A DNA stretch of 64,000 bases, from contig JBKPAJ010000007.1 in the NCBI GenBank assembly GCA_046726375.1, positions 6,488 through 70,487 on the forward strand. Direction: 5' to 3'. Positions 2,688 to 52,231 of the stretch are shown one piece after another (position 1 is the first letter of the stretch; each line of letters opens with the position of its first letter). This DNA is from Acidobacteriota bacterium (GTDB lineage Bacteria; Acidobacteriota; Vicinamibacteria; Vicinamibacterales; UBA2999). The position numbers and the translations under genes were made by a program. The notes under the pieces are model-generated. The model was not told the origin of the DNA and made no database searches. It worked only from the letters and a program-made list of their open reading frames with translations.

Positions 2688-2728
2688 TATGTCGCGGCGG
2701 ACCTTTGGCTCCGCCTTGCGACGAAAAT

Positions 2729-2756
2729 CCAACCGGTGTCTGACCATCCTCGTCTG
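2729..2756 (+). promoter_or_regulatory. candidate ECF-type promoter (AAC-N17-CGTC)
   Basis: ccAACCggtgtctgaccatcctCGTCTga lies just upstream of the sigma-factor ORF and matches the loose ECF -35/-10 pattern. Confidence 0.3.
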
Positions 2757-2762
2757 ATCACC

Positions 2763-4672: not shown

Positions 4673-6166
4673 TCAATCACCGGGTTGTTCCGGGATTCCG
4701 TGATTCCGTGGCCTGACAAGGCGCCGCAGCCGGCGCCAGCCGGGTAATAACGTGGTTGCGCTGAGCACGATGCCGCCACCGCTCAGCGCGATCATGACGA
4801 TGTCCCACAACGGCCTGCGGTAATACAAGAACGGAAAATCCAGACTGTGTAAGCCGTGATAGAGCCAGCGTTCCACGCGGCTCAATCGCTCTTCCTTGCG
4901 GACGATCACGCCACGCCGCGGGTCGAGGTACAACCAGGTGCGATTGGCATCTGCGTAGCGGACGCGAAGTACGGGCAGTGCGAGGTGATCATCGCGCGCG
5001 TAGTAGTAGTTGTCGTAGGTGTTCAGCCACGTCATGTCGTCAACCGCGACACCGGGCATGGCCATGTGCGCCGCGCGTTCGATCGCCTCACGCGGAAACT
5101 GTTGGAAGGCGACGCGTTCAGAGGGCACCGCGGGCACCAGCGTTCCACTGGCGGCGAGGTAGAGCGCTCCATCGAACTGAACCAGCTCAATCTCTTTGAT
5201 CGCCACATCTTCAGCCGTTGCCGCGAGCCTCGTTGCGGCGCCGCGGACGTTATCGGCTGTCAACGACGTCAGCGGCAGCGGTCCACCGGCGATGCGCTCC
5301 CGCTGCACGCGTGTTGGCGCGTTTCCAGGACTCCAACCCCAGGGACCCATTGAAAGGAGCCCGCTGAAAACCCAGGTGAGGCTCGCAGCGCCGAAGATCA
5401 ATCCGGAGTAGTGATGCCACTTCATGAGCCCGCTATAGGGCGAGCGTCTTGCGACGGTCAGACCCCACACCAGGCCCGTGATGCACATGAGGCAGCCCGC
5501 GACAGACACCCAGATGATCGTCTGCGTCCACAGCGCCGCCTGACGTCGGAACGGCGCGAAATACAACCAGTGAAGGACCGCGCCCGGGTAGGCCCATCGT
5601 CGTTCGGCCGCGGTGGTTCGCATTACGATCTCGCCGCTGCGCTGCGCCACATAGTAGTAGCTGCCGCCAGCGTCGCCGACCGCGACGCGATGCACCGGCA
5701 TCTGCGCGCGCACGCCCATCGTCCACTGGTCGGCATCCATCAACAACGCATCGTGCCGAATCGTGCCGACATGCTCAGGGATCAACGCACGCACGACAGC
5801 CACGGCGTCGTCTGCCGTCAACTCCTCGAGTAGCCGCCCGCTTTCGGCAAGCACTGAGGTCGACACACGGCCCAAAGTCAGGCGGTAGACCACGCGATCG
5901 CCGAAGGTCGTCACGCGGATGCGATCGGTGACGCGTCCGGAGGCCCGCAGGGCATCGGCGGGAGACGTTCTGATCTGGGCGATGTCGATCGGCTGCAATC
6001 GCCGCGACAACTCTTCGGCCGGGAGCGCCGGCATGCGCGCGTACATCATCACGATGCCGGAGACGAACCATGCGACGAACAGCAGGCCGGCGGCGATGCC
6101 GAGCCAACGGTGCGTGTAAACCACCGCCCGCCGCCAATCGAGCCGCGCGCGCGTTAAAACTGACAT
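4673..6166 (-). CDS. PepSY-associated TM helix domain protein
   Basis: 497 aa. N-terminus RRAVVYTHRWLGIAAGLLFVAWFVSGIVMMY and the repeated TM-plus-periplasmic-loop layout are typical of the PepSY_TM family. Confidence 0.8.
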   Translation of the reverse strand: MSVLTRARLDWRRAVVYTHRWLGIAAGLLFVAWFVSGIVMMYARMPALPAEELSRRLQPIDIAQIRTSPADALRASGRVTDRIRVTTFGDRVVYRLTLGRVSTSVLAESGRLLEELTADDAVAVVRALIPEHVGTIRHDALLMDADQWTMGVRAQMPVHRVAVGDAGGSYYYVAQRSGEIVMRTTAAERRWAYPGAVLHWLYFAPFRRQAALWTQTIIWVSVAGCLMCITGLVWGLTVARRSPYSGLMKWHHYSGLIFGAASLTWVFSGLLSMGPWGWSPGNAPTRVQRERIAGGPLPLTSLTADNVRGAATRLAATAEDVAIKEIELVQFDGALYLAASGTLVPAVPSERVAFQQFPREAIERAAHMAMPGVAVDDMTWLNTYDNYYYARDDHLALPVLRVRYADANRTWLYLDPRRGVIVRKEERLSRVERWLYHGLHSLDFPFLYYRRPLWDIVMIALSGGGIVLSATTLLPGWRRLRRLVRPRNHGIPEQPGD

Positions 6167-6220: not shown

Positions 6221-6691
6221 ATGGAATGGCTTGCGGCGATTGAGCAGAGCGCCGTTGCAACGTGGGTGCGCGAATCGGGCTCAATCTGGGCGTATCCCAC
6301 CATTCTCACGCTTCACACCCTGGGCCTGGGCATCCTCGTCGGCGCCAACGCCGCGCTCGATTTGCGGCTGCTCGGCTGGGGTCGCCGCATCCCGCTTGCG
6401 GATCTCGAAGGCCTGTTCAGAGCGATGTGGGCCGGCTTCGCCGTGAACGCGATCACGGGCGTGCTGCTGTTCGCGGCCGACGCCACGACGAAGAGCGTGC
6501 AATGGATTTTTTACGTCAAGCTCGCCTGCATCGTGCTCGCGGTCATCACCATGACACGGCTCAAAGCCGTCGTCTTCGGACCAGGTCCGGAGCACGGCGC
6601 CATCACGCCACGCAGCACGCGTCTCGCGCTGGCATCGCTCGTGTTGTGGACGGCAGCGATCACCGCCGGACGCTTCATGGCGTATCTATGA
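6221..6691 (+). CDS. uncharacterised 4-TM membrane protein (paralog 1)
   Basis: 156 aa. Shares LTLHTLGLGILVGANAALDLRLLG with the next gene. Confidence 0.65.
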   Translation: MEWLAAIEQSAVATWVRESGSIWAYPTILTLHTLGLGILVGANAALDLRLLGWGRRIPLADLEGLFRAMWAGFAVNAITGVLLFAADATTKSVQWIFYVKLACIVLAVITMTRLKAVVFGPGPEHGAITPRSTRLALASLVLWTAAITAGRFMAYL

Positions 6692-6701
6692 GGCGCCGCC
6701 G

Positions 6702-7190
6702 ATGATGTCGTTTGCCATGTGGCTCCGCAGCACCTACGTCTCGGAGCTGATTCGCTATTACCCGTGGCTGTGGCCGGTGTGCGAAACGATTCACTTCATC
6801 GGCCTCGCGCTCGTCATCGGGATCGCGGGCATGTTCGACCTGCGGCTCATGGGGTTTCTGTCGCGAATCTCGGTGTCGGCGGTGAAAGATCTCATGCCGT
6901 GGGCGGTTGCGGGTTTTGCCATGAACCTGGCGACGGGCACGGTCTTCTTTATTGGCGCGCCCGACCAATACGTGAACAACCCGGCGTGGTGGGCCAAGGT
7001 GTTTTTCATCGCGCTCGCCGGCCTCAACGCGATGGTGTTCGAGACCACCCTCGGTGCCCGTGTTCTGACGCTCGGTCCCGGTGAGAAAACGCCGGCGTCG
7101 TTCAAGATCATCGGCGCCCTGTCGCTGTTCTCGTGGTTGAGCGTGTTGTACTGGGGCCGGATGCTGCCATTCATCGGTGGCGCGTTCTAG
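6702..7190 (+). CDS. uncharacterised 4-TM membrane protein (paralog 2)
   Basis: 162 aa. CETIHFIGLALVIGIAGMFDLRLMG aligns with paralog 1 and the TM layout is the same. Confidence 0.65.
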   Translation: MMSFAMWLRSTYVSELIRYYPWLWPVCETIHFIGLALVIGIAGMFDLRLMGFLSRISVSAVKDLMPWAVAGFAMNLATGTVFFIGAPDQYVNNPAWWAKVFFIALAGLNAMVFETTLGARVLTLGPGEKTPASFKIIGALSLFSWLSVLYWGRMLPFIGGAF

Positions 7191-7192
7191 AG

Positions 7193-7675
7193 AACAGGGA
7201 GATCGGGGAGATCAGGGAGATCGGGATAACAGGGAGGTCGGAGAGATCGGGGAGAAAATCCTTCTTCCTGATCGCTCTGTCCTCCCTGTCCATCAACTCC
7301 CTGATCTCCCCGGTCTCCCTGTTCATTTGATCGGGGGGAGGGGATCACAGGGAGGTCGGAGAGATCGGGGAGAAAATTCTTGTCCCTGATCGCTCTGTCC
7401 TCCCTGTCCATCAACTCCCTGATCTCCCCGGTCTCCCTGATCATTTGATCGGGGGAGGGGATCATAGGGAGATTGGGGAGATCGAGGAGAAAATTCTTGT
7501 CCCTGATCTCTCCGTCCTCCCTGTCCATCAACTCCCTGATCTCCCCGGTCTCCCTGTTCATTGATCGAAAAGAATTCTCGAGCTCGCTGATCTCCTTGAT
7601 CTCCCTGTTATTTACCTCCTTGATCTCCCTGTTATGTTTATCACCCTGAGCGGGCCTGTTATCTCCCTCCCCGGA
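7193..7675. repeat. GGGAGATC-word repeat block: about three tandem units of 117-118 bp, each self-complementary
   Basis: Units start at about 7229, 7347 and 7464 (ACAGGGAGGTCGGAGAGATCGGGGAGAAAAT ... CCTGATCGCTCTGTCCTCCCTG ... CTCCCTGATCTCCCCGGTCTCCCTG). AGGGAGATC and GATCTCCCT words alternate. Confidence 0.9.
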
Positions 7676-11712: not shown

Positions 11713-11823
11713 AGCACGTGAGACGCTCCACTGTGCGATATCAGTGTTGACATCAGCCGGGCGCGGGAATAACGTAGCCGGGCCACTTGTCTGAACAACG
11801 TCGACCCCGCTTAGGAGGGTTTG

Positions 11824-14800
11824 ATGAGGCGCATCCTGAAGGTCCTGTCCCTGACAATTTCTCTGTGGGTCTTCGCGACCGGCGCGGCGTGGGCGCAGGC
11901 GACTGCGCAAATCAGCGGGGTGGTGCGAGATCAACAGGGTGGTGTGCTGCCGGGCGCTGATGTCACGGCCACGCAAACCGACACCGGCGCAAAACGCAGC
12001 GCCATGACCGACGTCGCAGGGTTCTACACCTTGCCCAACCTGCCCGTCGGCCCCTATCGGATTGACGTCACGCTGCAGGGATTCAAAGCCTTCTCGCAAA
12101 CCGGCATCGTCTTGCAGGTCAACGCCAGCCCGGTAATCAACGTGTCTCTGTCGATCGGCGAGCTGGCCGAAACCGTGTCGGTGCAGGGCGAATCGCCGCT
12201 GGTCGACACCTCGCGCGCCGGCATCGGGGAAGTGATTGAGAACGCGCGCATCATGGAGTTGCCACTCAACGGGCGCAACCCCACCGACTTGATCGAGCTG
12301 GCGGGCGCCGCGGTGAACGTGCCGGGGCAGGGCGCCTCCACCCGCAGCTTTCAGGGAAGCTCCGGCGGGCAGGGCATTTCCGTCGCCGGGGGCCAGACGT
12401 TCGGCACCGCGTACGTGCTCGACGGCGCGATGCACAACAACCCGTACGACAACTTGAATCTGCCGCTGCCGTTCCCCGATGCGTTGCAGGAGTTCCGCGT
12501 CGAAACCGGCGCCAGCGCCGCATCGAACGGCGTGCACTCGGGCGCATCGGTGAGCGCCGTCACCAAATCAGGGACCAACGTGTTCCACGGCGACGTCTTT
12601 GAGTTCTGGCGCAATCACGAGTTCAATGCCACCAACCCCTTCGCGCTCACCGGGCCCGACGGAAAACGCCGCGATGACGGCCTCAATCGTCATCAGTTCG
12701 GCGGCGTCATCGGCGGACCGCTCGTCAAGAACAGGTTGCATTTCTTCGCCGGCTATCAGGGAACGAAGATCGACCAGACGCCGACCGACAACATTGCCTT
12801 TGTGCCGACACCGGCGATGCTCAACGGAGATTTCTCGGCCATCACCTCGCCGGCATGCAATGCCGGACGTCAGATCACGTTGAACGCCCCCTTTGCGGGC
12901 AACCGGATCGATCCCGCGCGCTTCAGCCCTGCGGCGCTCAACCTCGCGCGTCGCTTGCCCTCGACAACCGATCCATGCGGACGCGTCGTGTTTGGCACTG
13001 CCGCCAATCGCGACGAAGGGCAGGTGGTGACGCGCGTCGACTATCAGTGGAAGCACAATCACACGATCTTTGGACGCTACATCGGCACCTCGTACAACAC
13101 TCCGCCGGCGCTGTCGATTACGCCGGACAATCTGTTGACGTCGCCCTTCGGTGGGTTCGACAACTTCGGTCACACGCTGACGGTGGGCGAGACGTGGGTG
13201 GTGAACTCGACGATGGTCAACTCCGTGCGATTCGCGTGGAACAACACCGATGTGCATCGCTATCACGAGGGCTACTTCAACGCCAACGATCTCGGCATCA
13301 ATATGTACAGCTACCTGGACGACTACTTCATCGCGAGCATCACGGGTGGCTTCAACGTCGGGAGCGGCGTCAACAACGAGGCGCGGTTCAAGACCACCAC
13401 GTATCAATTCAGCGATGACTTGACCTGGATCAGGGGCTCGCATCAAATCGGCTTCGGGATCAACGCCGCGCGCTGGGATTCCCTCTCGCTGGCGCACGTG
13501 CGCTCGCCCGGCACGTTCAACTTCAACGGCAACGTGACCGGTCTCGGCCTTGCGGACTTCCTGGTTGGAGTCTCGAGCCAGTTCCTGCAGGCGGCGCCGA
13601 ATACGCTCGACATGTATCAGTACTATTTCGCGCTGTACGGCGCCGACACCTGGCGCGTGAGCCCCAAGCTGACGCTGAACTACGGCTTGCGATGGGAGCC
13701 GTTCCTGCCGCAGCAGATTCCGAACGGCTACATCTATAATTTCGATCTCGATCGCTTCCGCCAGGGCGTCCACAGTCAGGTGTTCCCGCTCGCGCCGGCC
13801 GGATTCGTGTATCCCGGCGATCCTGAATTCGTGGGCGGTTATTCCGGGATGAACAAGCGGTGGACCAACTTCGCGCCCCGCGTCGCCGCGGCCTTTGATC
13901 CGAGCGGCGACGGTCGCACGACAATTCGCGCGGGCTACTCGCTCGGCTACGACTTCGTCAACGGCCAATATCACTTGAACACGTCGGTCGCGCCGCCGTG
14001 GGGCGCCGAGGTGCGGTTGACAAACGTGCCGCTCGATAGTCCGTTTGCCACGTTCCCGGGCGGCAATCCGTTTCCACGCGTCTTCAGCACGTCAACCACG
14101 TTCCCTGCGTTCGGGTCCTTTCTCGCCGTCGATCCGGATACCGACAACACGCGCCAGCACTCGTGGAACCTCGTGTATCAGCGCCAGCTTGGCAGCAACA
14201 TGCTGGTGTCGGCGAGCTACATCGGCAGCCACACGTCGAACCTGTGGAACATGAAAGCGCTCAATCCGGGCGTGTTCCTCGGCACCGGCCCGTGCACGCT
14301 GCCGCTCGCGACCCCGCCCAATCAGGCCGTCTGCTCGACCGACGCGAACTTGAACGCGCGCCGCGCGTTGAGCCTCGAGAACCCGAGCGAAGCACGTTTC
14401 ATCGGTCACCTCGATCAACACGATCCGAGCGGCCGCGCCAACTACAACGGCCTGCTCCTTTCCTTTTCGCGGCGTCAGGTGCGCGGTATCGGCTACAGCG
14501 GCAACTACACGCTGTCGAAATGCGACAGCCACCCGACGCAGTCGCTGCCGAACGTCGGCACCGGCTGGGCCGATCCGAACAATCCGGATTACGACTACGG
14601 CCCATGTGAGTCGGATCGGCGTCATATCGTGAACGCAACCGTTGGCTACGATCTGCCCGAGTTCTCCAACGCCGCGCTGCGGGCGATCGCATCCGATTGG
14701 CGCGTAAACGGCATTTTCCGCGCGCAGTCGGGTGGGCCGCTTACGATCACGTCCGGTCTCGATCGCTCGATGACGGGGGTCACCACCAATCAGCGGGCGG

Positions 14801-15171
14801 ATCTCGTCGGCGGCGATGGCTACGGCGACAAGTCGTTGAACCAGTGGCTTGATCGCGCCGACTTCGCGCAACCCGCGCTGGGCACGCTCGGCAATTCCGA
14901 ACGCGGGGGCTGGCGCGGTCCGTCGCGCTGGACGATCGACATGGTCGTCGCGCGCATGTTCCGCCTCGGTGGAACGCACGAAGTTGAACTGCGCCTGGAA
15001 ACGTTCAACCTCACCAACCATTTCAACTGGGGCAATCCGGTGACGAACCTGGCGAACCAGAACTTCGGTCGAATTCTCGGCGGCAACGGCGGGGGGGCCG
15101 GCAGTGCGGCGGAACAGGCCGCAGGCACGAGCCCGCGTGTGTTGCAATTCGGCATCAAGTACAACTTCTGA
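11824..15171 (+). CDS. TonB-dependent receptor with N-terminal carboxypeptidase-regulatory-like domain
   Basis: 1115 aa. AGGAGGG precedes the start. Signal peptide, ISGVVRDQQGGVLPGADVTATQTDTGAKRSAMTDVAGFYTLPNLPVGPY (CarboxypepD_reg), plug, long barrel, terminal ...LQFGIKYNF. Confidence 0.9.
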   Translation: MRRILKVLSLTISLWVFATGAAWAQATAQISGVVRDQQGGVLPGADVTATQTDTGAKRSAMTDVAGFYTLPNLPVGPYRIDVTLQGFKAFSQTGIVLQVNASPVINVSLSIGELAETVSVQGESPLVDTSRAGIGEVIENARIMELPLNGRNPTDLIELAGAAVNVPGQGASTRSFQGSSGGQGISVAGGQTFGTAYVLDGAMHNNPYDNLNLPLPFPDALQEFRVETGASAASNGVHSGASVSAVTKSGTNVFHGDVFEFWRNHEFNATNPFALTGPDGKRRDDGLNRHQFGGVIGGPLVKNRLHFFAGYQGTKIDQTPTDNIAFVPTPAMLNGDFSAITSPACNAGRQITLNAPFAGNRIDPARFSPAALNLARRLPSTTDPCGRVVFGTAANRDEGQVVTRVDYQWKHNHTIFGRYIGTSYNTPPALSITPDNLLTSPFGGFDNFGHTLTVGETWVVNSTMVNSVRFAWNNTDVHRYHEGYFNANDLGINMYSYLDDYFIASITGGFNVGSGVNNEARFKTTTYQFSDDLTWIRGSHQIGFGINAARWDSLSLAHVRSPGTFNFNGNVTGLGLADFLVGVSSQFLQAAPNTLDMYQYYFALYGADTWRVSPKLTLNYGLRWEPFLPQQIPNGYIYNFDLDRFRQGVHSQVFPLAPAGFVYPGDPEFVGGYSGMNKRWTNFAPRVAAAFDPSGDGRTTIRAGYSLGYDFVNGQYHLNTSVAPPWGAEVRLTNVPLDSPFATFPGGNPFPRVFSTSTTFPAFGSFLAVDPDTDNTRQHSWNLVYQRQLGSNMLVSASYIGSHTSNLWNMKALNPGVFLGTGPCTLPLATPPNQAVCSTDANLNARRALSLENPSEARFIGHLDQHDPSGRANYNGLLLSFSRRQVRGIGYSGNYTLSKCDSHPTQSLPNVGTGWADPNNPDYDYGPCESDRRHIVNATVGYDLPEFSNAALRAIASDWRVNGIFRAQSGGPLTITSGLDRSMTGVTTNQRADLVGGDGYGDKSLNQWLDRADFAQPALGTLGNSERGGWRGPSRWTIDMVVARMFRLGGTHEVELRLETFNLTNHFNWGNPVTNLANQNFGRILGGNGGGAGSAAEQAAGTSPRVLQFGIKYNF

Positions 15172-15180
15172 GGTCGGGCA

Positions 15181-16047
15181 ATGAAAGTTCTTATCTTTGT
15201 GGGAGCGCTGCTGGTGAGCGTCCCCGCATTCGCTCAAGTCGATCTCTCCGGCGAATGGACACCCGTCCGCGAGGAAGACAACACCGGCAATACCGAGCTC
15301 GGCGACTGGGGCGGCATCCCGATGAACCAGGCGGCGCGCGAACGCGCCATGGCCTGGATGGCGTCGATCCAAACGTTGCCCGAATGGCAATGCCGTCCAC
15401 ACGCGGCGACCTACATCTCGCGCGGGCCCTCGCAGCTGCGCATCTGGAAGGAAGTGGACCCGGTGTCACGCGAGGTGACGGCGTGGCATATGGAGTGGCT
15501 GCGCTCGGTGGAAAAAGCCGTCTACATGGACGGCCGCGCGCGGCCCTCAGCGAACGCGCCGCACACATGGGGCGGTTTCTCACTCGGCGAGTGGCAAGGC
15601 GACATCCTCAAGTTCACTACGACGCACATCAAAGAAGAGTATTTGAAGCGCAACGGCGTGTTCCACAGCGATCGCGCCACCGTGACCAATTACTTGATTC
15701 GGCGCGGCAACTATCTGACGTGGTTGATGGTGGAATACGACCCGGCGTACTTGACCGAGCCACTGATCCGCAGCACCGAATATCAGATCGATCAGCATCA
15801 GAACATGCCGCCTTACCCGTGCAACGTCGTCGAGGAAGTCGATCGGCCGAAAGGGATCGTGCCGCACCACCTGCCGAGCAGCCGCTCGTATCTGCAGGAA
15901 GTTCAGTACTTCGCGGATAAGTACGGCATTCCGTTCGAGGCCGTGCAATCGGGCGCCGAGACGATGTACCCGGAGATCGTGCAGAAGATCGAGAAGTACC
16001 GCAAAGCGGCGCCGGCTAACACTCCGCGACGCCAGCAAGAGAAGTAG
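15181..16047 (+). CDS. secreted protein of unrecognised family (type A, 'EWQCRPH' motif)
   Basis: Signal peptide MKVLIFVGALLVSVPAFAQ. Motifs DLSGEW, LPEWQCRPH, YLKRNGVFHSDRATVTNY, DPAYLTEP, PYPCNVVEE. A paralog forms the N-terminal half of 20774..22432. Confidence 0.75.
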   Translation: MKVLIFVGALLVSVPAFAQVDLSGEWTPVREEDNTGNTELGDWGGIPMNQAARERAMAWMASIQTLPEWQCRPHAATYISRGPSQLRIWKEVDPVSREVTAWHMEWLRSVEKAVYMDGRARPSANAPHTWGGFSLGEWQGDILKFTTTHIKEEYLKRNGVFHSDRATVTNYLIRRGNYLTWLMVEYDPAYLTEPLIRSTEYQIDQHQNMPPYPCNVVEEVDRPKGIVPHHLPSSRSYLQEVQYFADKYGIPFEAVQSGAETMYPEIVQKIEKYRKAAPANTPRRQQEK

Positions 16048-16049
16048 CC

Positions 16050-17162
16050 ATGAGATCGCATTCGTTCACGTTTATCGCCGCGCTGTGCGCCGCGGCCGTC
16101 GTCGGTGCTCAAACGCCAACTCAGAAGGCGGCGGACACCGAGCTCGAAGCGCTGCACGTCAAGGGCAACATCTACACCATCTTCGGCGCGGGTGGGAACG
16201 TCACGGTGTCGGTCGGCAAAGACGGTGTGTTGGTGGTCGACACCGGGTTGCCGCAGAACGCCGACAAACTGCTTGCGACCATTCAGCGTTTGCAGCGCGA
16301 GGCGCAGGCGAAGGAAGCGCCACCCTCGCTCGGGTGGGGCGCGGAAACCCGCGGCACGCTGCAGATGTCGCTCAATGGCGTTGCGCCGCCGAAACCGATC
16401 CGCTACATCGTCAACACGCACGTGCATCCGGATCATGTCGGCGGCAACGAAACGCTGCGCGCGTCGGGAAAGACGTTCACGGGCGGCAACGTCGCCGGCG
16501 ATATTTCCGACGCGACCGAAGGGGCAATGATCCTCTCGCATGAGAATGTGCTCAATCGGCTCGGGACGCCGCCGGCGGGTCAGACGCCGGCGCCCGAAGG
16601 CGCGCTGCCGACCGACACGTATTACGGCGATGCGATGAAGCTGAGTCACTTCTTCAACGGTGAAGGCGTGCAGCTGTTTCATCCGAAGAACGCCCACACG
16701 GATGGCGATACGTTCGTCTTTTTCCGCGGCTCCGACGTGATCGTCGGTGGCGATTTGTTTGTGATGACGACCTACCCATTCATCGACATCGAGCGGGGAG
16801 GCCACATCAACGGGATTATCGATGCCGTGAACCACATGCTCGATCTCACGGTGCCGGAGTTCCGCCTCGAGGGCGGCACGATGGTGGTGCCCGGACACGG
16901 CCGGCTGTCCGATTCGGGCGATCTCGCGTACTACCGCGACATGCTCACGATCATTCGCGATCGCGTGCAGGACCTGGTCAAGAAAGGGATGACGCTCGAG
17001 CAGGTCAAGGCCGCGCGCCCCACCAAGGATTACGACCCGCGCTGGGGTGCGACGAGCGGTTTCTGGACGACCGATCAATTCGTCGACGCGATCTACAAGA
17101 ACTTGTCCCCGAAGCCAGCGGCGAAGCCGACGCCAAAACCGTCGAAAGGCAGCGCACGTTGA
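16050..17162 (+). CDS. secreted MBL-fold metallo-hydrolase
   Basis: Signal peptide, then YIVNTHVHPDHVGGN (HxHxDH motif) and later HTDGD, PGHG. Confidence 0.85.
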   Translation: MRSHSFTFIAALCAAAVVGAQTPTQKAADTELEALHVKGNIYTIFGAGGNVTVSVGKDGVLVVDTGLPQNADKLLATIQRLQREAQAKEAPPSLGWGAETRGTLQMSLNGVAPPKPIRYIVNTHVHPDHVGGNETLRASGKTFTGGNVAGDISDATEGAMILSHENVLNRLGTPPAGQTPAPEGALPTDTYYGDAMKLSHFFNGEGVQLFHPKNAHTDGDTFVFFRGSDVIVGGDLFVMTTYPFIDIERGGHINGIIDAVNHMLDLTVPEFRLEGGTMVVPGHGRLSDSGDLAYYRDMLTIIRDRVQDLVKKGMTLEQVKAARPTKDYDPRWGATSGFWTTDQFVDAIYKNLSPKPAAKPTPKPSKGSAR

Positions 17163-17977
17163 TGGTGCGCGTCGCGACGATTCTCGGCTGCACGCTCGCG
17201 GCGTGCGTGGCAGTGGCCGCGCAGCAATACCCCGGCGCGCCGCCGGCCGCACCGGCTGGGCAAGCGCCGGTCGCAAATCCACGTGCGGCGGCGCCGATCG
17301 ATCTCACCGGCTATTGGGTGTCGATGTTGACCGAAGACTGGCGCTGGCGTGTCGTCACTCCGCCGAAAGGCGACGTCCTCTATCTGCCGGTGAACGCGGA
17401 GGGACGGAAGCTCGCGGAGGCGTGGGACCCGGCCCAGGACGAAGCCGCGGGTGAGCAGTGCAAGCCGTTCGGCGCTGGTGGTGTGATGCGCTTGCCAGGG
17501 CGGCTGCACATCACGTGGGAAAGCGATCAGGTGCTGCGCCTCGATACCGACGCTGGGACGCAGACGCGGCGCTTCTACTTCGGTCAGGCCCCGGCGGCGA
17601 CTGAGCCAACGTGGCAGGGCCGATCAGTTGCGAACTGGCAGTTTTATGGACCGGCACGCGGCCGCGGACGCGGCGCGATGCAGGGATTGGAGCTGCCGAC
17701 GGGCACCGCCAGCCCAGCGCGACGCGGTGAGCTTCGTGTGGTCACGCGTGATCTGCGGCCCGGCTATTTGCGGCGCAACGGGGTGCCGTACAGCGAGAAC
17801 ACAGCGATCACCGAGCACTTCACGACGATCAAGGAGGACAACGGCGACGAGTACCTCGTGGTGACGACGATCCTCGAAGACCCGAAGTATCTGGCGGCGC
17901 CGTACGTGCGCAGCTATCAGTTCAAGAAGCAGCCGGATAGCAAGGGTTGGAACCCGACGCCGTGTTCGGTGAAATAA
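17162..17977 (+). CDS. secreted protein of unrecognised family (type B, 'TEDWRWR' motif)
   Basis: ATG 17162 overlaps the MBL stop (TGATG). Motifs DLTGYWVSMLTEDWRWRVVTPPKGD, EQCKPFGAGG, YLRRNGVPYSENTAITEHF, DPKYLAAPY, PTPCSVK. A paralog forms the C-terminal half of 20774..22432. Confidence 0.75.
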   Translation: MVRVATILGCTLAACVAVAAQQYPGAPPAAPAGQAPVANPRAAAPIDLTGYWVSMLTEDWRWRVVTPPKGDVLYLPVNAEGRKLAEAWDPAQDEAAGEQCKPFGAGGVMRLPGRLHITWESDQVLRLDTDAGTQTRRFYFGQAPAATEPTWQGRSVANWQFYGPARGRGRGAMQGLELPTGTASPARRGELRVVTRDLRPGYLRRNGVPYSENTAITEHFTTIKEDNGDEYLVVTTILEDPKYLAAPYVRSYQFKKQPDSKGWNPTPCSVK

Positions 17978-17992
17978 ACATCGTACGCAGGA

Positions 17993-18112
17993 GCGAACCC
18001 TTAGGTTCGCCTAGCAATCGCGGACCTGAAGGGCCGCGCTACATGAAATCGCATGCGGGCGCGGACCTTTAGGTCAGCTTCATGCGCAGCCGCGGACCTT
18101 GAGGTGCGCCCA
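17993..18112. repeat. array of four REP-like stem-loops GCG(G/A)ACC-N4-GGTNCGC
   Basis: gcgaacc-ctta-ggttcgc (17993), gcggacc-tgaa-gggccgc (18020), gcggacc-ttta-ggtcagc (18061), gcggacc-ttga-ggtgcgc (18092). Confidence 0.7.
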
Positions 18113-18128
18113 GAATCCGAGGTTTTCA

Positions 18129-19154
18129 TTGCTTCTTCCCACTACTTTGGTCGGCAGCTTCCCGCAACCGGACTGGCTGATCGATCGCAAGAAACTCGCC
18201 GGACGCTTCCCCCCGCGTACGCGAGCCAAAGAACTCTGGCGCATCCCGGAACCATGGCTGGCCGAAGCGCAGAACGATGCGACGCTCATCGCGATTCGCG
18301 CGCAGGAAGACGCCGGCCTCGACATCGTGAGCGACGGCGAGATTCGGCGCGAGAGCTACTCCAACCGGTTTGCGACGGCGCTCGACGGCGTCGATCTCGA
18401 CAATCCAGGCACGGCGCTCGATCGCTCTGGACATCCCAATCCTGTACCGCGCATCGTCGGCAAGATCCGGCGGCGTCATCCGGTCGAAGTGGAGGATGTG
18501 CACTTTCTCCGTCGACACGCGAAGAAGCAAATCAAGATCACCGTTCCTGGCCCCTTCACAATGTCGCAACAGGCGCAGAATGACTTCTACGCGAGCGAAG
18601 AAGAAGCGGCAATGGACTACGCGGCGGCCGTCAACGAAGAGATCCGCGATCTGTTTGCCGCCGGCGCAGACGTCGTCCAGGTGGACGAGCCGTATATGCA
18701 GGCGCGTCCGGAGAAGGCGCGTCAGTACGGGTTGCGCGCGCTGAACCGCGCGCTCGAAGGCGTCACCGGCACGACGGCGGTGCACATCTGTTTCGGGTAT
18801 GCCGCCATCATTCACGACCGTCCGTCGGGCTACTCATTTTTGCCCGAGCTAGCCGACTGCAGTTGCAAGCAGGTGTCGATCGAAACGGCGCAGTCGAATC
18901 TCGATTGCTCCGCGCTCAAACCGCTGAGCGGTAAGCAGATTCTTCTTGGCGTGATCGATTTGTCGGACATGAACGTCGAGGCGCCGGAAACCGTCGCCAA
19001 TCGCATCCGCCGGGCGCTGCCGTATGTGGATGCGAGGAACATCATTGCTTCGACGGACTGCGGCATGAAGTACCTGCCTCGCGACGTCGCCGCTGGCAAG
19101 CTGCGCGCGCTGGTCGAAGGCGCCGGGCTCGTGCGCCGCGAATTGGAGTCGTAG
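18129..19154 (+). CDS. cobalamin-independent methionine synthase (MetE C-terminal domain)-like protein
   Basis: LLPTTLVGSFPQPDWL ... DIVSDGEIRRESY ... VQVDEPY ... HICFGY ... STDCGM. I prefer TTG 18129 (GAGG 6 nt upstream) because the track start 18099 lies inside the last REP-like hairpin. Confidence 0.8.
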   Translation: MLLPTTLVGSFPQPDWLIDRKKLAGRFPPRTRAKELWRIPEPWLAEAQNDATLIAIRAQEDAGLDIVSDGEIRRESYSNRFATALDGVDLDNPGTALDRSGHPNPVPRIVGKIRRRHPVEVEDVHFLRRHAKKQIKITVPGPFTMSQQAQNDFYASEEEAAMDYAAAVNEEIRDLFAAGADVVQVDEPYMQARPEKARQYGLRALNRALEGVTGTTAVHICFGYAAIIHDRPSGYSFLPELADCSCKQVSIETAQSNLDCSALKPLSGKQILLGVIDLSDMNVEAPETVANRIRRALPYVDARNIIASTDCGMKYLPRDVAAGKLRALVEGAGLVRRELES

Positions 19155-19156
19155 AC

Positions 19157-20020
19157 ATGCGGTTGTGCCGATTTGGGGACTCCCGCCTCGGTCTCGTGGA
19201 CGGCACGACGCTGCGCGACGTCACGGCAGCGCTCGACGTGCTGCCGGCGTATCACTATCCGTTGCCGACCTACGACGTCATGATCGCGAATCTCGACAAG
19301 GTCAAGGAGCGTGCCGGCGCACTCTCGAAGTCGGCGCCGGAGTTGCCGCTGTCGAGTGTGAAGCTGCTCAGTCCGGTTGCGAATCCAGGCAAGGTGGTCG
19401 GCGCGCCGTTGAATTACAAGAAGCACATGGACGAAGTGCGCGAGCAGGCGCAACTGCATCACGGCAACGAAGGCCACACGGCGCCGATTCATTCCGCGGG
19501 TGTCTTCCTGAAGGCGTCCAGCTCGGTTGTCGGTCCGAGTGAAGGCATTGCCGTGCGTAAGCTCGATCGCCGCAACGATCATGAAGTGGAGCTTGGATTT
19601 GTGATCGGCAAGGAAGCCAGCAACGTGCCGGCGGGCGATGCGCTGAAGTACGTCGCCGGCTACTTCATTGGTCTCGATATCACGATTCGCGGGCCCGAAG
19701 AGCGAAGCCTCCGGAAATCCGTTGATTCCTATACGGTGGTAGGGCCGTGGCTCGTCACCGCGGACGAGATCCCGAATCCTGGCGAGCTCGATTTGCAAAT
19801 CGCCGTGAACGGCGAGATGCGTCAACGCTCGAATACGAAGCACCTGATCCTCGGCGTGCCCGAGTTGATCGAGTACGCGACATCGTTCTACACGCTCTAT
19901 CCGGGCGACATCGTCATCACCGGCACGCCCGAAGGGGTGAGCCCGATTCAGCCGGGCGACACCATCGTGGCGACGATCGAGAAGATCGGGACGATGCAGG
20001 TTGATGTCCGCGAGGCCTAA
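19157..20020 (+). CDS. fumarylacetoacetate hydrolase (FAH) family hydrolase
   Basis: 287 aa. NYKKH ... HEVELGFVIGK ... FIGLDIT ... GDIVITGTPEGV is the classic FAH-fold pattern. Confidence 0.85.
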   Translation: MRLCRFGDSRLGLVDGTTLRDVTAALDVLPAYHYPLPTYDVMIANLDKVKERAGALSKSAPELPLSSVKLLSPVANPGKVVGAPLNYKKHMDEVREQAQLHHGNEGHTAPIHSAGVFLKASSSVVGPSEGIAVRKLDRRNDHEVELGFVIGKEASNVPAGDALKYVAGYFIGLDITIRGPEERSLRKSVDSYTVVGPWLVTADEIPNPGELDLQIAVNGEMRQRSNTKHLILGVPELIEYATSFYTLYPGDIVITGTPEGVSPIQPGDTIVATIEKIGTMQVDVREA

Positions 20021-20777
20021 GGTGAGTTCGCGCGTTTATCGCATTGGACAAATCGTGCCGAGCTCGAACACCACGATGGAGACGGAGATTCCGGCGATGC
20101 TTCGCGCGCGCGAAGCCGTGGAGCCGGAGCGATTCACCTTCCATTCGAGCCGCATGCGCATGAAGACAGTCACTAAAGAAGAGCTCGCGGCGATGGATGC
20201 AGAATCCGATCGCTGTGCCGCGGAGCTCGCCGATGCGCGCGTGGACGTCATCGGCTACGCGTGTCTGGTGGCGATCATGAGCATGGGGAAGGGTTATCAC
20301 TGCCAATCGCAGTCGCGATTGCAATCCGTGGCGGCGCGCGAGGGGCACCCGATTGCGGTCGTGACGAGCGCAGGTGCGCTGGTTGACGGTGTCAAGCGGC
20401 TTGGTGCGAAACGCGTGGCGATGGTGTCGCCCTACCTCAAACCCCTCACCGCACTCGTGTGCGACTACATCCAAGCGGAGGGAGTCGAGGTGGCCGACCG
20501 CGTGTCGCTCGAGATTGCCGACAACGTCGAAGTTGGACGGCAACACCCGATGGCGCTTCTCGACATCTACAAACGGCTGGACCTCACGGGCGTCGATGCA
20601 CTGGTTTTGTCATCGTGCGTGCAAATGCCATCACTAGCCGCAATCCCCGCAGTGGAGAAGGAAACCGGCTTGCCGGTGGTGTCGGCGGCGGTATGCACGA
20701 CGTACGCGATGCTCGACCAATTGGGACTCAAACGCCACGTTCCGAACGCAGGGACATTGTTGGCGGGTGATTTATGA
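20004..20777 (+). CDS. maleate cis-trans isomerase / Asp-Glu racemase superfamily protein
   Basis: YRIGQIVPSSNTTMETEIPAML ... IGYACLVAIM ... LSSCVQMPS, with two catalytic-type Cys contexts. The start may instead be GTG 20022 (GAGG upstream). Confidence 0.8.
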   Translation: MSARPKVSSRVYRIGQIVPSSNTTMETEIPAMLRAREAVEPERFTFHSSRMRMKTVTKEELAAMDAESDRCAAELADARVDVIGYACLVAIMSMGKGYHCQSQSRLQSVAAREGHPIAVVTSAGALVDGVKRLGAKRVAMVSPYLKPLTALVCDYIQAEGVEVADRVSLEIADNVEVGRQHPMALLDIYKRLDLTGVDALVLSSCVQMPSLAAIPAVEKETGLPVVSAAVCTTYAMLDQLGLKRHVPNAGTLLAGDL

Positions 20778-22432
20778 AGCGGCTGATCGCGGACCTAAGG
20801 GTGCGCGCTACATCTGTGTTGTGGGCTACATGTGCGTCGCGGGCTACATTTGTGTCATGGGCGTCTTTTTCGTGGGCGACCCGGCCGTCATCTTCTTCAT
20901 TTGCAGCGCGGCCGTCATTTTCTTCTGTAGCGCCCACTTTTGGGTCCGCGGTGCTTGTCCTCGCGCTCGCGACACCGGCCTATTCGCAGATCGATCTGAG
21001 CGGCGAATGGGCGCCGCGCTTTTACGAGGATCAACCGGAACGCGTCCCGGGGCCCGATCTCGGCGATTACCTTGGCATTCCCATCAGCGACGCCGCGCGC
21101 TGGCGGGCTGAAGCATGGAGCGCCTCGATCATGACGCTGCCGGAATGGCAGTGCCGCCCGCACTCTGCCGACTACATCTGGCGCGGCCCGTCGCCGGTGG
21201 TCATCTCGAAGGAAGTCGATCCCGTGTCGCGCGAGATCACGAGCTTCAAACTCGAATGGCTACGATCGGTCGAGCGGGCCATCTATCTCGATGGCCGAAA
21301 TCCGCCGTCTGAAAACGCGCCTCACACGTGGGCCGGCTTTTCCGTCGGCCGGTGGACCGGCGACATCCTCACGGTTACAACCACGCACCTGAAAGAAGGC
21401 TACGTTCGTCGCAACGGCTTGCCCAGGAGCGATCAGGCGACGCTCACCGAGCATTTCATCCGCAACGGCGACGTGCTGACCGTTGTGACGATCGTGACCG
21501 ATCCGGTGTACCTCACTGAACCGTTCATCCGCACCACCGACTACGAGCTCGATCTCAAGCAGCAAAACCCTCCCTATCCGTGTCACGTTGTCGAAGAAAT
21601 CGATCGGCCGAAAGGGATGGTGCCGCACATTGCACCGGGCACGAATCAGTCGGTGCAGGAGTTTGCCACGAAGCACAACGTGCCCGCCGAGGCTGCGCGC
21701 GGTGGCGCGGCGACGATGTATCCGGTGCGCGTGACGGCCGGCAAGACGAGCGCCGAAACGCGGACGCCTCTAGGTGCCGGTGTTCCGGTGGACTTGACGG
21801 GGCAATGGGTTTCGGTCGTAACCGAAGATTGGCGCTGGCGTATGGTGACGCCACCGAAAGGCGATTACGCGAGCGTCCCGCTCAATCCAGAGGGCGTGAA
21901 GATCGTCAACGCCTGGGATCCGGCGAAAGACGAAGCGGCCGGGCAGCAATGTCGCGCCTACGGAGCAGGTGGCATCATGCGCATGCCCGGTCAGATTCGC
22001 ATCGCCTGGCAAGACGATCGAACACTCAAAGTAGACACAGAAGCCGGATCGCAAACACGCGTGTTCCACTTTGGCGGTGCTGCGCTTGGCGACACGCAGG
22101 CGGGTTGGCAGGGTGTATCGAGTGCACAGTGGCAGTATGCGGGTCGGCCCGCTCGCAGTGGCGGAGCACGTCCCGCTGGCGGCTCGTTGCGCGTCACCAC
22201 TACCCGCTTGTTGCCAGGCTACCTGAGAAAGAACGGCGTGCCGTACGGCGCTAACGCGCGCGTGACCGAATACTTGAATCGCGTGGACGAACCCAATGGC
22301 GATTCGTGGTTGATCGTCACGACGCTGGTCGAGGATCCGCAATACCTCGCGCAACGATTTGTCACGAGCTCGCATTTCAAGAAGGTCGCGGACGGATCGC
22401 CGTGGAATCCAATGCCATGTTCGGCGAAGTGA
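20774..22432 (+). CDS. secreted fusion of the type A and type B unknown domains (A-B protein), with an in-frame element in its signal-peptide region
   Basis: ATGA overlap with the previous gene. Residues ~75-330 align with 15181..16047 (LPEWQCRPH, PYPCHVVEE). Residues ~345-552 align with 17162..17977 (TEDWRWRMVTPPKGD, QQCRAYGAGG, NPMPCSAK). Confidence 0.75.
   Translation: MKRLIADLRVRATSVLWATCASRATFVSWASFSWATRPSSSSFAARPSFSSVAPTFGSAVLVLALATPAYSQIDLSGEWAPRFYEDQPERVPGPDLGDYLGIPISDAARWRAEAWSASIMTLPEWQCRPHSADYIWRGPSPVVISKEVDPVSREITSFKLEWLRSVERAIYLDGRNPPSENAPHTWAGFSVGRWTGDILTVTTTHLKEGYVRRNGLPRSDQATLTEHFIRNGDVLTVVTIVTDPVYLTEPFIRTTDYELDLKQQNPPYPCHVVEEIDRPKGMVPHIAPGTNQSVQEFATKHNVPAEAARGGAATMYPVRVTAGKTSAETRTPLGAGVPVDLTGQWVSVVTEDWRWRMVTPPKGDYASVPLNPEGVKIVNAWDPAKDEAAGQQCRAYGAGGIMRMPGQIRIAWQDDRTLKVDTEAGSQTRVFHFGGAALGDTQAGWQGVSSAQWQYAGRPARSGGARPAGGSLRVTTTRLLPGYLRKNGVPYGANARVTEYLNRVDEPNGDSWLIVTTLVEDPQYLAQRFVTSSHFKKVADGSPWNPMPCSAK
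20789..20950. mobile_element. 162-bp palindromic (MITE/REP-like) element inserted in frame in the coding region
   Basis: Terminal inverted repeats GCGGACCTAAGGGTGCGCGCTACA ... TGTAGCGCCCACTTTTGGGTCCGCG. Internal tandem words. Excising it restores a canonical signal peptide (see findings). Confidence 0.6.
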
Positions 22433-22439
22433 GGAAACC

Positions 22440-23510
22440 ATGAATTACCCAACGACAACGTTCGTTGAAAAACCCGGATTGACTGCGGAACGGCAGGAAT
22501 TCTATGGCCGTCTCGATACGAAAAACACTGCCCCGTTGTGGGAAGTGCTCAATCGCCTGGTCACACCGGAACCACAGCCGACGACAGTTCCTGCGCACTG
22601 GCGCTGGTCCGATATGCGGCCGCTGCTGCTCGAGGCCGGGCGCCTCATCACTGCGAAGGAAGCCGAGCGGCGCGTGCTCGTTCTCGAGAATCCGGGACTG
22701 CGACAACATCCAGCGTTCAAGTCGCAGATTACGCAGAGCCTCTATGCCGGATTGCAATGCATCATGCCCGATGAAGTGGCGCCAAGCCATCGCCACGTGG
22801 CCTCCGCACTTCGTTTCGTCATCGAAGGCGAAGGCGCGTACACCGCCGTGGAAGGCGAGCGCACGAGGATGCGGCCGGGCGATTTCATTCTGACGCCGTC
22901 GTGGACGTTTCACGATCACGGCAATCCCGCCAGCAACCCGGTGATTTGGCTCGACGGCCTCGACGTTCCGATCGTCAACTCGTTCGACACGAGCTTTGCC
23001 GAGCATCATCCGATGGAGACGCAGCCAGTGAGTCGCGAGGAAGGCGACGCCCTAGCGCGCTATGGCGCCAACCTTCTGCCGCTCGAGTACAAGCCATCGC
23101 GACTCTCGGCGCCGGTTTTTACGTATCCGTACGAACGAAGCCGCGAAACGCTTGCACGGCTGCAGCGCACGAGCGAGGTCGATGCGTGTCACGGCATCAA
23201 GCTGCAGTACATCAATCCAGCGACGGGCGGTTATCCGATGCCGACGATTGGCGCCTTTCTGCAGGTACTGCCGAAAGGATTCGACGGTGCGTCGTACCGC
23301 TCGACCGACGCGACGATCGTCTGCGTCGTCGAAGGGCATGGGCGGTCCCGGATTGCGGATGCGACGTTTTCGTGGGAGCCGCACGACGTGTTTGTCGTGC
23401 CGTCGTGGGCGCCGGTGTCTCATTCCGCGCACGACGAGTGTGTGCTCTTCAGCTTTTCCGATCGGCCGGCGCAAAAGGCGCTTGGCCTTTGGCGCGAGCA
23501 ACAGGGCTAA
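22440..23510 (+). CDS. gentisate 1,2-dioxygenase (bicupin)
   Basis: GAGG then ATG 22440. [17 protein letters not shown] ... [39 protein letters not shown] ... [11 protein letters not shown] is very characteristic of gentisate dioxygenases. Confidence 0.85.
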
Positions 23511-23512
23511 CC

Positions 23513-25156
23513 ATGATCAATCGACGCGTATTCCTGGGATCCAGTGCGGCCGCCGCTGCCGCGTTGATGTTCGAGGGTGGGCTGGCACGCGCGTTCGCGC
23601 AGGCTGCGCAAGCAACGCCTGGTGCGACGGTGGAGACGACGGCAGGCAAGATCCGCGGCCTTATACTCGATCCGAAAGTGCATGCGTTCAAGGGCGTGCC
23701 CTACGGCGCGTCAACGGCAGGCCGACGTTTTCTTCCGCCGGTGAAGCCGGCGCCCTGGACAGGAGTACGTGATGCGTTCGCGATCGGCCACCGTTCACCG
23801 CTCGTCGATTCCGTGATCGTGCCCGAGTTCGCTCCGCTCAATCGCAAAGAGACGATGGGCGAAGACTGCCTCGTGCTCAACGTGTGGACGCCGAATGTGG
23901 ATAAACAGAGGCGGCCAGTGATGGTATGGCTGCATGGCGGCGGCTACAACGCGGGATCGGCCGGCTGGATCTGCTACGACGGCGGCGAGCTTGCGCGTAA
24001 ACACGACGTCGTGGTCGTAGGCGTCAACCATCGCCTGAATGCGTTTGGCTTCATGTATCTCGCGGAGCTCGGCGGAGAGAAGTACGCCGAGGCGAGCAAT
24101 CAGGGACTGCGCGACATCATTCTGTCGCTCGAGTGGATTCGCGACAACGCGGCCGCCTTCGGCGGTGACCCGAGCAACGTCACGATCTTCGGCCAGTCCG
24201 GCGGCGCCGGCAAGGTCAGCACGCTGCTCGGCATGCCTGCAGCGCAAGGGCTGTTTCAGCGTGTGATCGTGCAGAGCGGATCATCGATTACCAGTCAGCC
24301 GCGAGCGGCCGCGACGAAAGCTGCTGAAGCGTTCATGCTGCGCGTTGGTCTCAAACCGAATCAAGTCGAGGAGATGGCGCAGTTGCCGATGGAGCAGCTC
24401 GTGACGGCGCTGCAAGCCCGAGCCGGCGGCGGCGAGCGCGGGGGCCCGGGAGGCGGTGGTTTCCAGGCCGGACCTGTCGTCGACGGCAAATCGCTGCCCG
24501 TGAACTGCTTCGATCCGACCGCGACGACGATCTCTGCGAACGTGCCGATGTTGATCGGTTCGACGGAAACAGAAGTGACGTGGAATGTCAACACCAGCTA
24601 CGACGCGCCCGACGAAGCGGGCCTGCGCGCGCGTGTTGCGAAGACGCTCGGTATCGATGAAAGCGCCGCGGACCATGTTGTCGCGGTGTATCGCAAGGGC
24701 CGGCCCAAGGCCAGTAACCTCGATCTCGCGTTGATCATCGAAACAGACAGTTCGAACTTCCGCACAGGAACCGATCTGCAGGCAGAGCGGAAGGCCGCGC
24801 TCGAGAAGGCGCGGGTTTACATGTATCGCTTCCAGTGGTACACGCCGGTGACGGACGGACGGCTGCGCGCGATGCACTGTCTCGACATTCCGTTTGTTTT
24901 CGACAATGTGGAAGCGTGCAAAACGATCACCGGAACCGGTCCCGATCGACAACTATTGGCAGACAGGATGAGCGCGGCGTGGGTGGCGTTCGCGCGCAGC
25001 GGCAATCCGAATCACAAGGGGATTCCGAAGTGGGAGCCGTTTACGGCGAGCGCACGCAACACGATGATCTTCAACACCGAGTGCCGCGCCGTGGTCGATC
25101 CGTATCGCGAGGAGCGGTTACTCACGACGGCTCGAAGGATGCGTGAATCCTTGTAA
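23513..25156 (+). CDS. Tat-exported type-B carboxylesterase/lipase family protein
   Basis: From ATG 23513: [20 protein letters not shown] (twin-arginine), [33 protein letters not shown] (GxSxG). Confidence 0.85.
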
Positions 25157-26015: not shown

Positions 26016-26222
26016 TCTGGCGATGTCGCGACGTGGTGATGTGGCGATGTGATGTATCGATGGGGTGAGGTGGTGGGGTGTCTGTCGATGTTGCGATGTA
26101 ATGTGTCGATGTAATCACATCACCACATCGTCAGATAACATCATTCCATCGATAGACACATCGCGACATCGACACATCTCAACATCACATCGCCACATCA
26201 CCAGCTCGCCACATCGACACTT
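26016..26222. repeat. GATGTGGCGATGT-word long hairpin at a convergent junction
   Basis: 21-bp perfect inverted repeat: ggtgatgtggcgatgtgatgt (26035-26055) and acatcacatcgccacatcacc (26182-26202). The arms are built from GATGT/CGATG words. Confidence 0.85.
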
Positions 26223-52215: not shown

Positions 52216-52231
52216 TTACGAGGATAAATCG

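Follow-up and report, generated by a model that had tools for sequence, protein, structure and literature searches.

Repetitive extragenic palindromes (REPs) with a 5′-GTAG tag form one of two large REP superfamilies, according to Di Nocera 2013 (PMC3733652). Such REPs, and the REP doublets forming hairpins (REPINs), are short G+C-rich hairpins with the tag at one end. They are dispersed singly, in arrays and as inverted doublets, usually just 3′ of open reading frames (ORFs), and they flank a single gene for a REP-associated tyrosine transposase (RAYT) (Nunvar 2010; Bertels & Rainey 2011; Di Nocera 2013). The distance from an ORF's 3′ end is usually no more than about 20 bp (PMC3733652). Di Nocera 2013 also catalogs intragenic REPs of both the GTAG and the CGTC class in several phyla, with dimers encoding 20–30 residues, clusters encoding 43–82 residues, and an excess at N-termini. 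GTAG REPs downstream of genes, the SMAG elements, are reported to alter the stability of the upstream transcript (PMC3184786). Here we describe a REP doublet in a window of 64,000 nt from an Acidobacteriota bacterium (positions 6,488 to 70,487 of contig JBKPAJ010000007.1). The element, 162 nt at window positions 20789–20950, amounts to 54 codons without a stop and interrupts the signal-peptide region of the ORF at 20774–22432 on the plus strand. Judged by its sequence, it is an inverted doublet of a GTAG-tagged REP with the GTAG ends directed inward, resembling a REPIN.

An earlier reading of the sequence alone had proposed a palindromic element lying in frame within a signal peptide. The ORF, the deletion product, the inverted repeats and the tandem words that it named were all verified. 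Removal of 20789–20950 leaves MKRLIVLVLALATPAYSQ followed by IDLSGEW, and this restored leader agrees with that of the paralog at 15181, as had been claimed. The terminal inverted repeats (TIRs) are 25 nt long and 84% complementary, with arms at 20788–20812 and 20926–20950. Folded as RNA, the 162 nt reach −77 kcal/mol (z = −3.5), and none of 200 shuffled sequences folded as well. The end motif has three matches in the window, compared with 0.00 expected by chance from shuffled controls.

Each arm is a copy of a REP unit, GCGGACC-N4-GGTCCGC-GCTACA (consensus GCGGACCTGAAGGTCCGC-GCTACA), which has a 7-bp stem and a 4-nt loop. The opposite strand of the tail GCTACA reads TGTAGC and then the hairpin, that is, GTAG-C-hairpin. 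The left unit (20789–20812, plus strand) consists of the hairpin GCGGACC-TAAG-GGTGCGC and the tail GCTACA, and is read as ADLRVRAT; it has three mismatches to the family consensus and fits the scan pattern. The right unit is inverted (20926–20950, minus strand) and has five mismatches. It consists of TGTAGC and a decayed hairpin, GCCCACT-TTTG-GGTCCGC, and is read as VAPTFGSA. The stems of the window units carry one to three mismatches per arm; those in the related stretch L091 are perfect.

Between the two units lie reiterated sequences. At 20807–20862 on the plus strand, the REP tail and a spacer (GCTACATNTGTGT..) are reiterated in tandem; TRF reports a period of 18 nt in 3.1 copies with a score of 70 and 78% matches. 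This array is followed at 20864–20925, also on the plus strand, by 27-nt units (TCTTYTTC...GGCCGTCA) that start at 20864 and 20891 and show 74% identity in a repeat search. By direct reading, the second of these holds a degenerate copy of the REP head, TGCAGCGCGGCC, to be compared with TGTAGCGCGGACC. The interior is built from repeated GTAG-proximal segments of the two arms. For its 113 nt (20813–20925), 1.5 Mb of related DNA contain no second copy except at the same locus in a second assembly, L255 (JBKPHN010000222.1). No flanking direct repeat is present; the element is preceded by CTGATC and followed by GTGCTT. Scans for terminators, promoters and Rfam families turned up nothing that accounts for the element.

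The orthologs of the host gene were checked for the 54-residue segment. About 60 of them, from genomes and metagenomes, lack it and have plain leaders of about 18–20 residues of the type M(K/R)-hydrophobic-AxAQ, without any conserved homologous segment. The DNA of L092 and L093 aligns across the empty site. The insert is confined to the closest clade (93–94% amino acid identity), and the orthologs recovered by a metagenome scan were all distant ones, at 77% identity or less, and had no insert. The site evidently acquired the element by insertion and did not hold it as ancestral sequence. The whole 162 nt is base-for-base identical in L255, whose copy of the gene is 99.9% identical to that of the window at the nucleotide level, with the differences outside the element. 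Because the 162 nt are the same in an assembly whose gene differs elsewhere, an assembly artefact is unlikely.

A shorter element of 66 nt stands in L091 and L094 (both from the metagenome-assembled genome (MAG) JBKPDL01, 94% amino acid identity) and in four further metagenome proteins. It comprises GCGGACC-TAAC-GGTCCGC-GCCACA, 17 nt, and TGTAGC-GCGGACC-TTCT-GGTCCGC, and is thus a compact doublet of two perfect hairpins. It encodes ADLTVRATRTTKIFVARTFWSA and ends 13 codons before Q-IDLSGEW, the same distance as in the window copy. Five of the 22 positions of the encoded peptide vary among near-identical relatives, and the peptide itself is not constrained. The 162-nt element is best read as a locally expanded derivative of the 66-nt doublet, and not as a mobile unit itself, because its interior has no other copy, is made of reiterated GTAG-proximal arm parts, and shows a kind of reiteration that is typical of the family. 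The tail-plus-spacer reiteration is found in 15 of 142 family copies (about 10%), and a second REP site in the window has also expanded, from two to four units. The sequence-only reading had taken the 162 nt as the unit; the bounded palindrome holds, but the dispersed unit is the 24-nt REP and the interior is a local expansion.

In an ortholog of the host gene from an 82%-identity clade, a different palindrome was observed at the same place. This 54-nt sequence of GTTCA words (L254, 2504–2557; −16.8 kcal/mol) lies in frame in the same leader region and gives MKVQRSQFKVQCGTRTLNV-ALSLAVW.... It suggests that the n-region of the host gene has been hit repeatedly by palindromic elements.

The REP unit is dispersed, in keeping with the further copies of the terminal repeat that were sought. 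Neither of the two observations that the earlier reading had named as refuting it, a conserved segment in related orthologs or the lack of any other copy of the repeat, was made. A motif scan with one genome per species found 90 stretches, nearly all from MAGs of Acidobacteriota/Vicinamibacteria, and at least 28 of the 90 belong to JBKPDL01, the closest relative by the host gene. Some copies stand alone, and others form direct arrays or inverted doublets. Across 140 non-identical copies, conservation is limited to the 24-nt core; the flanks are near random, with a weak a.c at −3 to −1. The C-T-A-C of the tail is present at 89–98% in these copies, a value that is partly built in, since the retrieval pattern contained the tail. 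Independent support for the tag comes from a co-occurring second REP type, which also begins GTAG-TGCAGGCC. For 34 of 141 copies a partner lies inverted no more than 160 nt away, with GTAG inside as in the window element; examples are in L016, L052, L053, L082 and L088.

The 64 kb of the window hold REP copies at two sites only. Besides the doublet, four direct REP units of the same family form an intergenic array at 17993–18115 on the plus strand, beginning 15 nt after the stop of the gene that ends at 17977. The sequence-only reading had seen the end motif recur here as a stem-loop array near 17993–18112, and the four hairpins agree with it. The orthologous site in L032 of JBKPDL01 (6380–6470) has two units, compared with four in the window and L255, and the window array (17993–18131) has gained 72 nt relative to L032. 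This gain coincides with a change of the start of the downstream Meth_synt_2-like gene from ATG to TTG at about 18129.

The second type, GTAG-TGCAGGCC-TTCA-GGCCTGC, co-occurs with the GCGGACC type in L042 (1–23, 110–133 and about 649–668) and in L010, L017, L077 and L083. The two are often joined tail to tail in a fixed heterodoublet with a 6–8-nt spacer, and the second type also flanks RAYT genes. The Acidobacteriota REP, even as the heterodoublet, was observed on MAG contigs labelled Bifidobacteriaceae, Smithella, Mycobacterium and Devosia (L002, L024, L074 and L336, CAZOIK01; L003 and L056, CAZBGE01; L058; L072). The multi-copy cases of CAZOIK01 and CAZBGE01 look like mis-binned or mislabelled contigs, and single motif matches on oddly labelled MAGs may be due to chance.

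A candidate transposase accompanies the family. L042 encodes, at 86–616 on the minus strand, a protein of 177 residues that scores 101 bits against NF047646 REP_Tyr_transpos, an NCBIfam equivalog model with a cutoff of 80. The protein also matches Pfam Y1_Tnp, and its closest solved structure is that of E. coli TnpA-REP (PDB 4ER8, E = 4.6e-7). REPs of the GCGGACC type stand on both sides of the gene, and this arrangement is a classical REPtron. REP-flanked RAYT genes were found in at least two MAGs, CAVXGU01 (L042/L256) and CAWCFI01 (L258). RAYT relatives are common in Acidobacteriota, with 170 confirmed stretches; in the 1.5 Mb of related DNA, a search by regular expression and phmmer gave L042 as the sole find.

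The host ORF (20774–22432, plus strand) encodes a secreted protein of 552 residues, a fusion of two domains that are paralogous to the genes at 15181–16047 (57% identity, N half) and 17159–17977 (54% identity, C half). The protein, including the 54-residue segment, has no match in Pfam or NCBIfam. The two-domain family has no model in either database, although a search listed 2116 proteins at E ≤ 0.001 among 8000 candidates scored. The first five codons (20774–20788, plus strand), MKRLI, are the original n-region, now set apart from the h-region; orthologs begin with MR or MK and a hydrophobic core. The h- and c-regions (VLVLALATPAYSQ) follow the element at 20951–20989 on the plus strand, and 13 codons lead up to Q-IDLSGEW in all carriers. 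Upstream lies a gene of the Amdase/maleate-isomerase-like family (20001–20777, plus strand; Pfam PF17645 Amdase, 66 bits). Its TGA stop (20775–20777) overlaps the host ATG as ATGA, and the overlap is kept in L091, L092, L093, L254 and L255. The element begins 11 nt after this stop and, because stop and start overlap, it thereby enters the host gene at codon 6, where the charged n-region gives way to the hydrophobic core.

The mature region has a ratio of nonsynonymous to synonymous divergence (dN/dS) of 0.06–0.07 at dS 0.37–0.39 between the window and the other carrier lineages, L091 and L094. These values indicate that the mature protein is under strong purifying selection, and that the gene has been functional for long with the insert in place.

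We regard the following account as likely. A 66-nt doublet, mobilised by a RAYT, would have inserted once in the ancestor of the lineages of the window, L091 and L094, at the usual location for a REP, just 3′ of an ORF. Its survival would have three causes: the length is divisible by three; the frame in which it is read (ADLxVRAT ... VARTFxSA) is free of stops and rich in arginine; and the signal peptide is cleaved, so that the mature protein would be unchanged. In the window lineage the interior would then have lengthened from 17 to 113 nt as GTAG-proximal parts of both arms were reiterated in tandem, with periods of 18 and 27 nt, and the hairpins would have decayed. Translation would start at the coupled ATG 20774 and pass through the element, giving a signal peptide of 72 residues with a long, positively charged n-region. 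A stem of about −75 kcal/mol is predicted from +13 of the ATG, and initiation should therefore depend on a ribosome arriving from the upstream cistron; expression would probably rely on this translational coupling. The hairpin may also stabilise the upstream transcript. Most likely the element is a tolerated, near-neutral passenger.

That the element is translated we consider probable. Both the coupled ATG and an upstream GGxGG resembling a Shine-Dalgarno sequence are conserved. The insert lengths of 54, 66 and 162 nt and the internal periods of 18 and 27 nt are all multiples of three. The inserted stretch has a net charge of +3 to +6, and the hydrophobic core stays 5–6 residues from the cleavage motif in all carriers; charge and spacing are compatible with an extended n-region. 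In either orientation of the REP consensus, direct reading shows two of the three frames to be open, with arginine-rich open frames, so that a fair share of insertions made at random, though less than half, would be expected to survive here.

Several observations weigh against parts of this account. The search for a RAYT came up empty in the window and in the part covered of the MAGs of its closest relatives, JBKPDL01 and JBKPHN01, and the 80 RAYT loci retained include none from JBKPDL01; that the element is tied to a RAYT in the window genome is therefore inferred. The codons before the element differ strongly, MKRLI in the window and MRFPSV in L091 and L094, so that independent insertion or turnover at a hot spot is possible. 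With respect to translation, the 72 nt gained by the array at 17993–18131 show that a non-coding REP site also grew by a multiple of three. A second frame is open across the element (ORF 20767–21111), and the plus strand is poor in A. The frame argument for translation is accordingly only modest.

In another reading, the doublet is not translated at all. The real start would be the GTG at 20951, or ribosomes would re-initiate, and the element would act at the RNA level as an intercistronic or 5′-untranslated hairpin within an ORF that is long by accident. The NCBI pipeline does place the start of the gene at this GTG in the sibling assemblies (493-residue P0126 and P0128, beginning MLVLALATPAYSQ; position 10001 in L255), whereas the products that JGI calls for the 66-nt relatives, of 521 residues, take in the element. 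Moreover, most REPs at the 5′ ends of ORFs in Pseudomonas, Citrobacter and Stenotrophomonas are judged non-coding in Di Nocera 2013 (PMC3733652). The GTG is specific to the window lineage, with ATC in its place in L091 and L094, and could be a new start that compensates for the insert; since the A-poor strand leaves two frames open, the open frame is weak evidence against such a start. However, a leader beginning with MLVLALATPAYSQ contains no lysine or arginine and has a core of six residues, whereas every ortholog has M(K/R) and a longer core. In the predicted ensemble, the GTG and the 15 nt upstream, which would hold its ribosome-binding site, are unpaired with a probability of 0.00–0.08, being locked in the −75 kcal/mol stem, and the region of the ATG is about half open. 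Translation most likely runs through the element because the downstream start is buried in this way. In L091 and L094 no usable downstream start exists, the only downstream ATG leaving an 11-residue stub (MLVVATPASAQ), yet the gene has a dN/dS of 0.08. The conserved ATGA coupling also puts the terminating ribosome exactly at ATG 20774. We therefore consider an untranslated doublet unlikely, and the start of the host gene in the NCBI annotation was probably mis-called because of the REP.

Other explanations concern what the element does or where it came from. The doublet may have been co-opted, so that its hairpin shields the upstream transcript from 3′ exonucleases or throttles downstream translation, or its arginine-rich peptide tunes targeting. 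This reading is compatible with the insertion history, but we hold it to be doubtful. It draws on the effect of GTAG-class REPs on upstream transcripts (PMC3184786), on the preference of REPs for ORF 3′ ends (PMC3733652), on the stem at +13 and on the persistence of the insert over a dS of about 0.38. Furthermore, the window and L091 differ at 8 of 49 positions in the REP arms and at 15 of 39 in the adjacent signal-peptide codons, which hints at constraint or gene conversion. Against it stand the decay of the individual hairpins in the window copy, the free variation of the encoded peptide, the lack of any terminator-like, promoter-like or Rfam feature in the element, and the fact that most orthologs do without an insert. 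A classical MITE (a miniature transposable element with inverted repeats), that is, a deletion derivative of an insertion sequence (IS) with a DDE transposase, its whole 162 nt mobile between TIRs and a target-site duplication, would agree with the 25-nt imperfect TIRs and with a size inside the MITE range of 70–300 bp. It is very improbable, since the flanks show no duplication, the 113-nt interior has no second copy, and the same site holds a 66-nt version with a different interior. Each apparent TIR is in fact a self-contained GTAG-tagged hairpin that also occurs alone, in direct arrays and beside RAYT genes. The open frame and the identity of the segment in two assemblies might suggest a true N-terminal extension or domain of 54 residues, ancestral to the protein; but the orthologs lack it, the nearest relatives have 22 unrelated interior residues instead, and no Pfam or NCBIfam model matches it. 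For a mis-assembly, the two assemblies would have to share one error while differing elsewhere in the gene. We give an ancestral domain or an artefact almost no credence. The MITE with a target-site duplication, the N-terminal domain and the artefact were thus rejected on the flanks, the unique interior, the orthologs and the second assembly. Programmed ribosomal bypass of the hairpin was also considered and had no support; the open in-frame reading makes a bypass unnecessary.

In-frame REP doublets also occur in leaders elsewhere. L080 (CAWCFI010000013.1), from an unrelated Acidobacteriota MAG, carries them in the leaders of a VWA protein and of two M20 peptidase paralogs, at 2111–2164, 3584–3636 and about 5051–5105, with the genes on the minus strand; a fourth paralog has a plain leader without an insert. 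These are heterodoublets of a GTAG-GCAGGCC-type and a GCGGACC-type REP. They lie 16–32 nt downstream of the preceding stop, and the carrier genes start 7 nt after that stop or overlap it (ATGA). Paralog C in this stretch is split over two frames (3034–3645 and 2181–3548), by a frameshift or by an indel error of long reads.

Searches for further cases gave little. A genome scan for the exact heterodoublet found five copies, with only the L080 one in frame, and its pattern is too strict to give a frequency. A protein-database search with a 40-residue composite of REP-encoded peptides gave no candidate with three shared 5-residue words. The 41-residue leader of P0001, run with phmmer against 1.84 billion representatives, had as its sole match a coincidental one to cadherin-like repeats in P0130, the segment being too short for a test. 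A bolder proposal, which we regard as a long shot, is that REP doublets in these Acidobacteriota are recurrently recruited, and not just tolerated, in signal-peptide n-regions where the start codon coincides with the preceding stop or closely follows it. The arginine-rich peptide and the hairpin at +13 might set the initiation rate and Sec targeting, or precise excision and re-insertion by a RAYT might switch secretion efficiency, as a REP-based phase switch or rheostat.

The surroundings of the host gene were also recorded. The gene belongs to a conserved operon, which at 11821–25156 of the window resembles an aromatic-compound catabolic cluster. It encodes, in order, a TonB-dependent receptor (CarboxypepD_reg and OMP_b-brl_4), an unknown secreted protein, an MBL-fold hydrolase, a second unknown secreted protein, a Meth_synt_2/URO-D-like protein, an FAA hydrolase, the Amdase-like protein, the host protein, a bicupin and a carboxylesterase. 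Large intergenic palindromes built of repeated words, unrelated to the REP, lie at 7183–7640, 26018–26219, 45791–46000, 51480–52225 and 55710–55837. One arm of such a palindrome is a run of a single word of 8–10 nt (for example CAGGGAGATC, or GATGTNNC/ACATC), and the other arm is complementary. The biggest, of about 750 nt, lies between convergent ORFs; 7223–7575 consists of three 118-nt units.

The locus presents one REP doublet in empty, 66-nt and 162-nt states within an otherwise conserved gene. It illustrates how, in an operon that lacks intergenic DNA, a REP aimed at the 3′ side of one gene lands in the following one, and how a cleaved signal peptide offers a safe place for it. It also has a practical side. 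Gene callers disagree, giving 552 or 521 residues on the one hand and 493 on the other, and the short call probably drops the charged n-region and the first part of the hydrophobic core; predictions of the secretome from Acidobacteriota MAGs would be led astray by such a start. The locus also documents that the REP's GTAG-proximal part is reiterated in tandem, which may bear on how RAYTs cut and join DNA.

Among the described systems, the sequence-only reading had likened the element to the Rickettsia palindromic elements (RPEs) and had not been aware of such in-frame insertion in this kind of genome. The likeness in behavior holds: RPEs (Ogata et al. 2000, 2002) are in-frame palindromic repeats of about 100–150 nt in ORFs that still function, and the present insertion likewise leaves its ORF open. 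The class is another one, the GTAG REP or REPIN–RAYT system. RPEs are Rickettsia-specific families in which the whole 100–150 nt are repeated, and, judged by the repeated unit, the window element is not a member of such a family because only its 24-nt ends are repeated. Di Nocera 2013 (PMC3733652) gives the tag of RPE-4 and RPE-6 as CGTC, not GTAG. The resemblance is one of behavior only, and is not proof of membership. In-frame intragenic REPs are not limited to Rickettsia, being listed for several phyla in Di Nocera 2013, and the earlier reading thus overestimated the novelty.

In-frame fusions of bacterial MITEs to genes are also known (ERIC/YPAL, BRE, RUP and Correia; Delihas 2011); in these, a small non-autonomous repeat lengthens or breaks into an ORF, in some cases at its 5′ end. 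The window element is similar in this respect, but MITEs have IS-derived TIRs, target-site duplications and a conserved full-length consensus, and none of these holds for it.

The closest likeness is to the GTAG REPs and REPINs, with which the element shares the form and the arrangements described at the outset. Unlike the usual REP, the window copy is inside an ORF and not extragenic, although intragenic members are documented (PMC3733652). The catalogued GTAG REPs differ from it in lineage, the present ones being from MAGs of Vicinamibacteria/Acidobacteriota, and a statement related to Acidobacteriota in that paper concerns the TIRYT genes and TIR repeats of Koribacter versatilis, not REP families. 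A cognate RAYT is seen in other MAGs with this REP family (L042/L256 and L258), and not in the window or the available DNA of its closest relatives. A search of the literature for REP insertions in signal peptides found no paper discussing them. The present element sits in the n-region of a Sec-type signal peptide, is probably translated, and has been expanded internally by in-frame tandem reiteration. It extends both the RAYT-associated GTAG REPs and the in-frame insertions to Vicinamibacteria, and what is new in it is this lineage, the signal-peptide context with its evidence of read-through, and the series of three states of in-frame growth.

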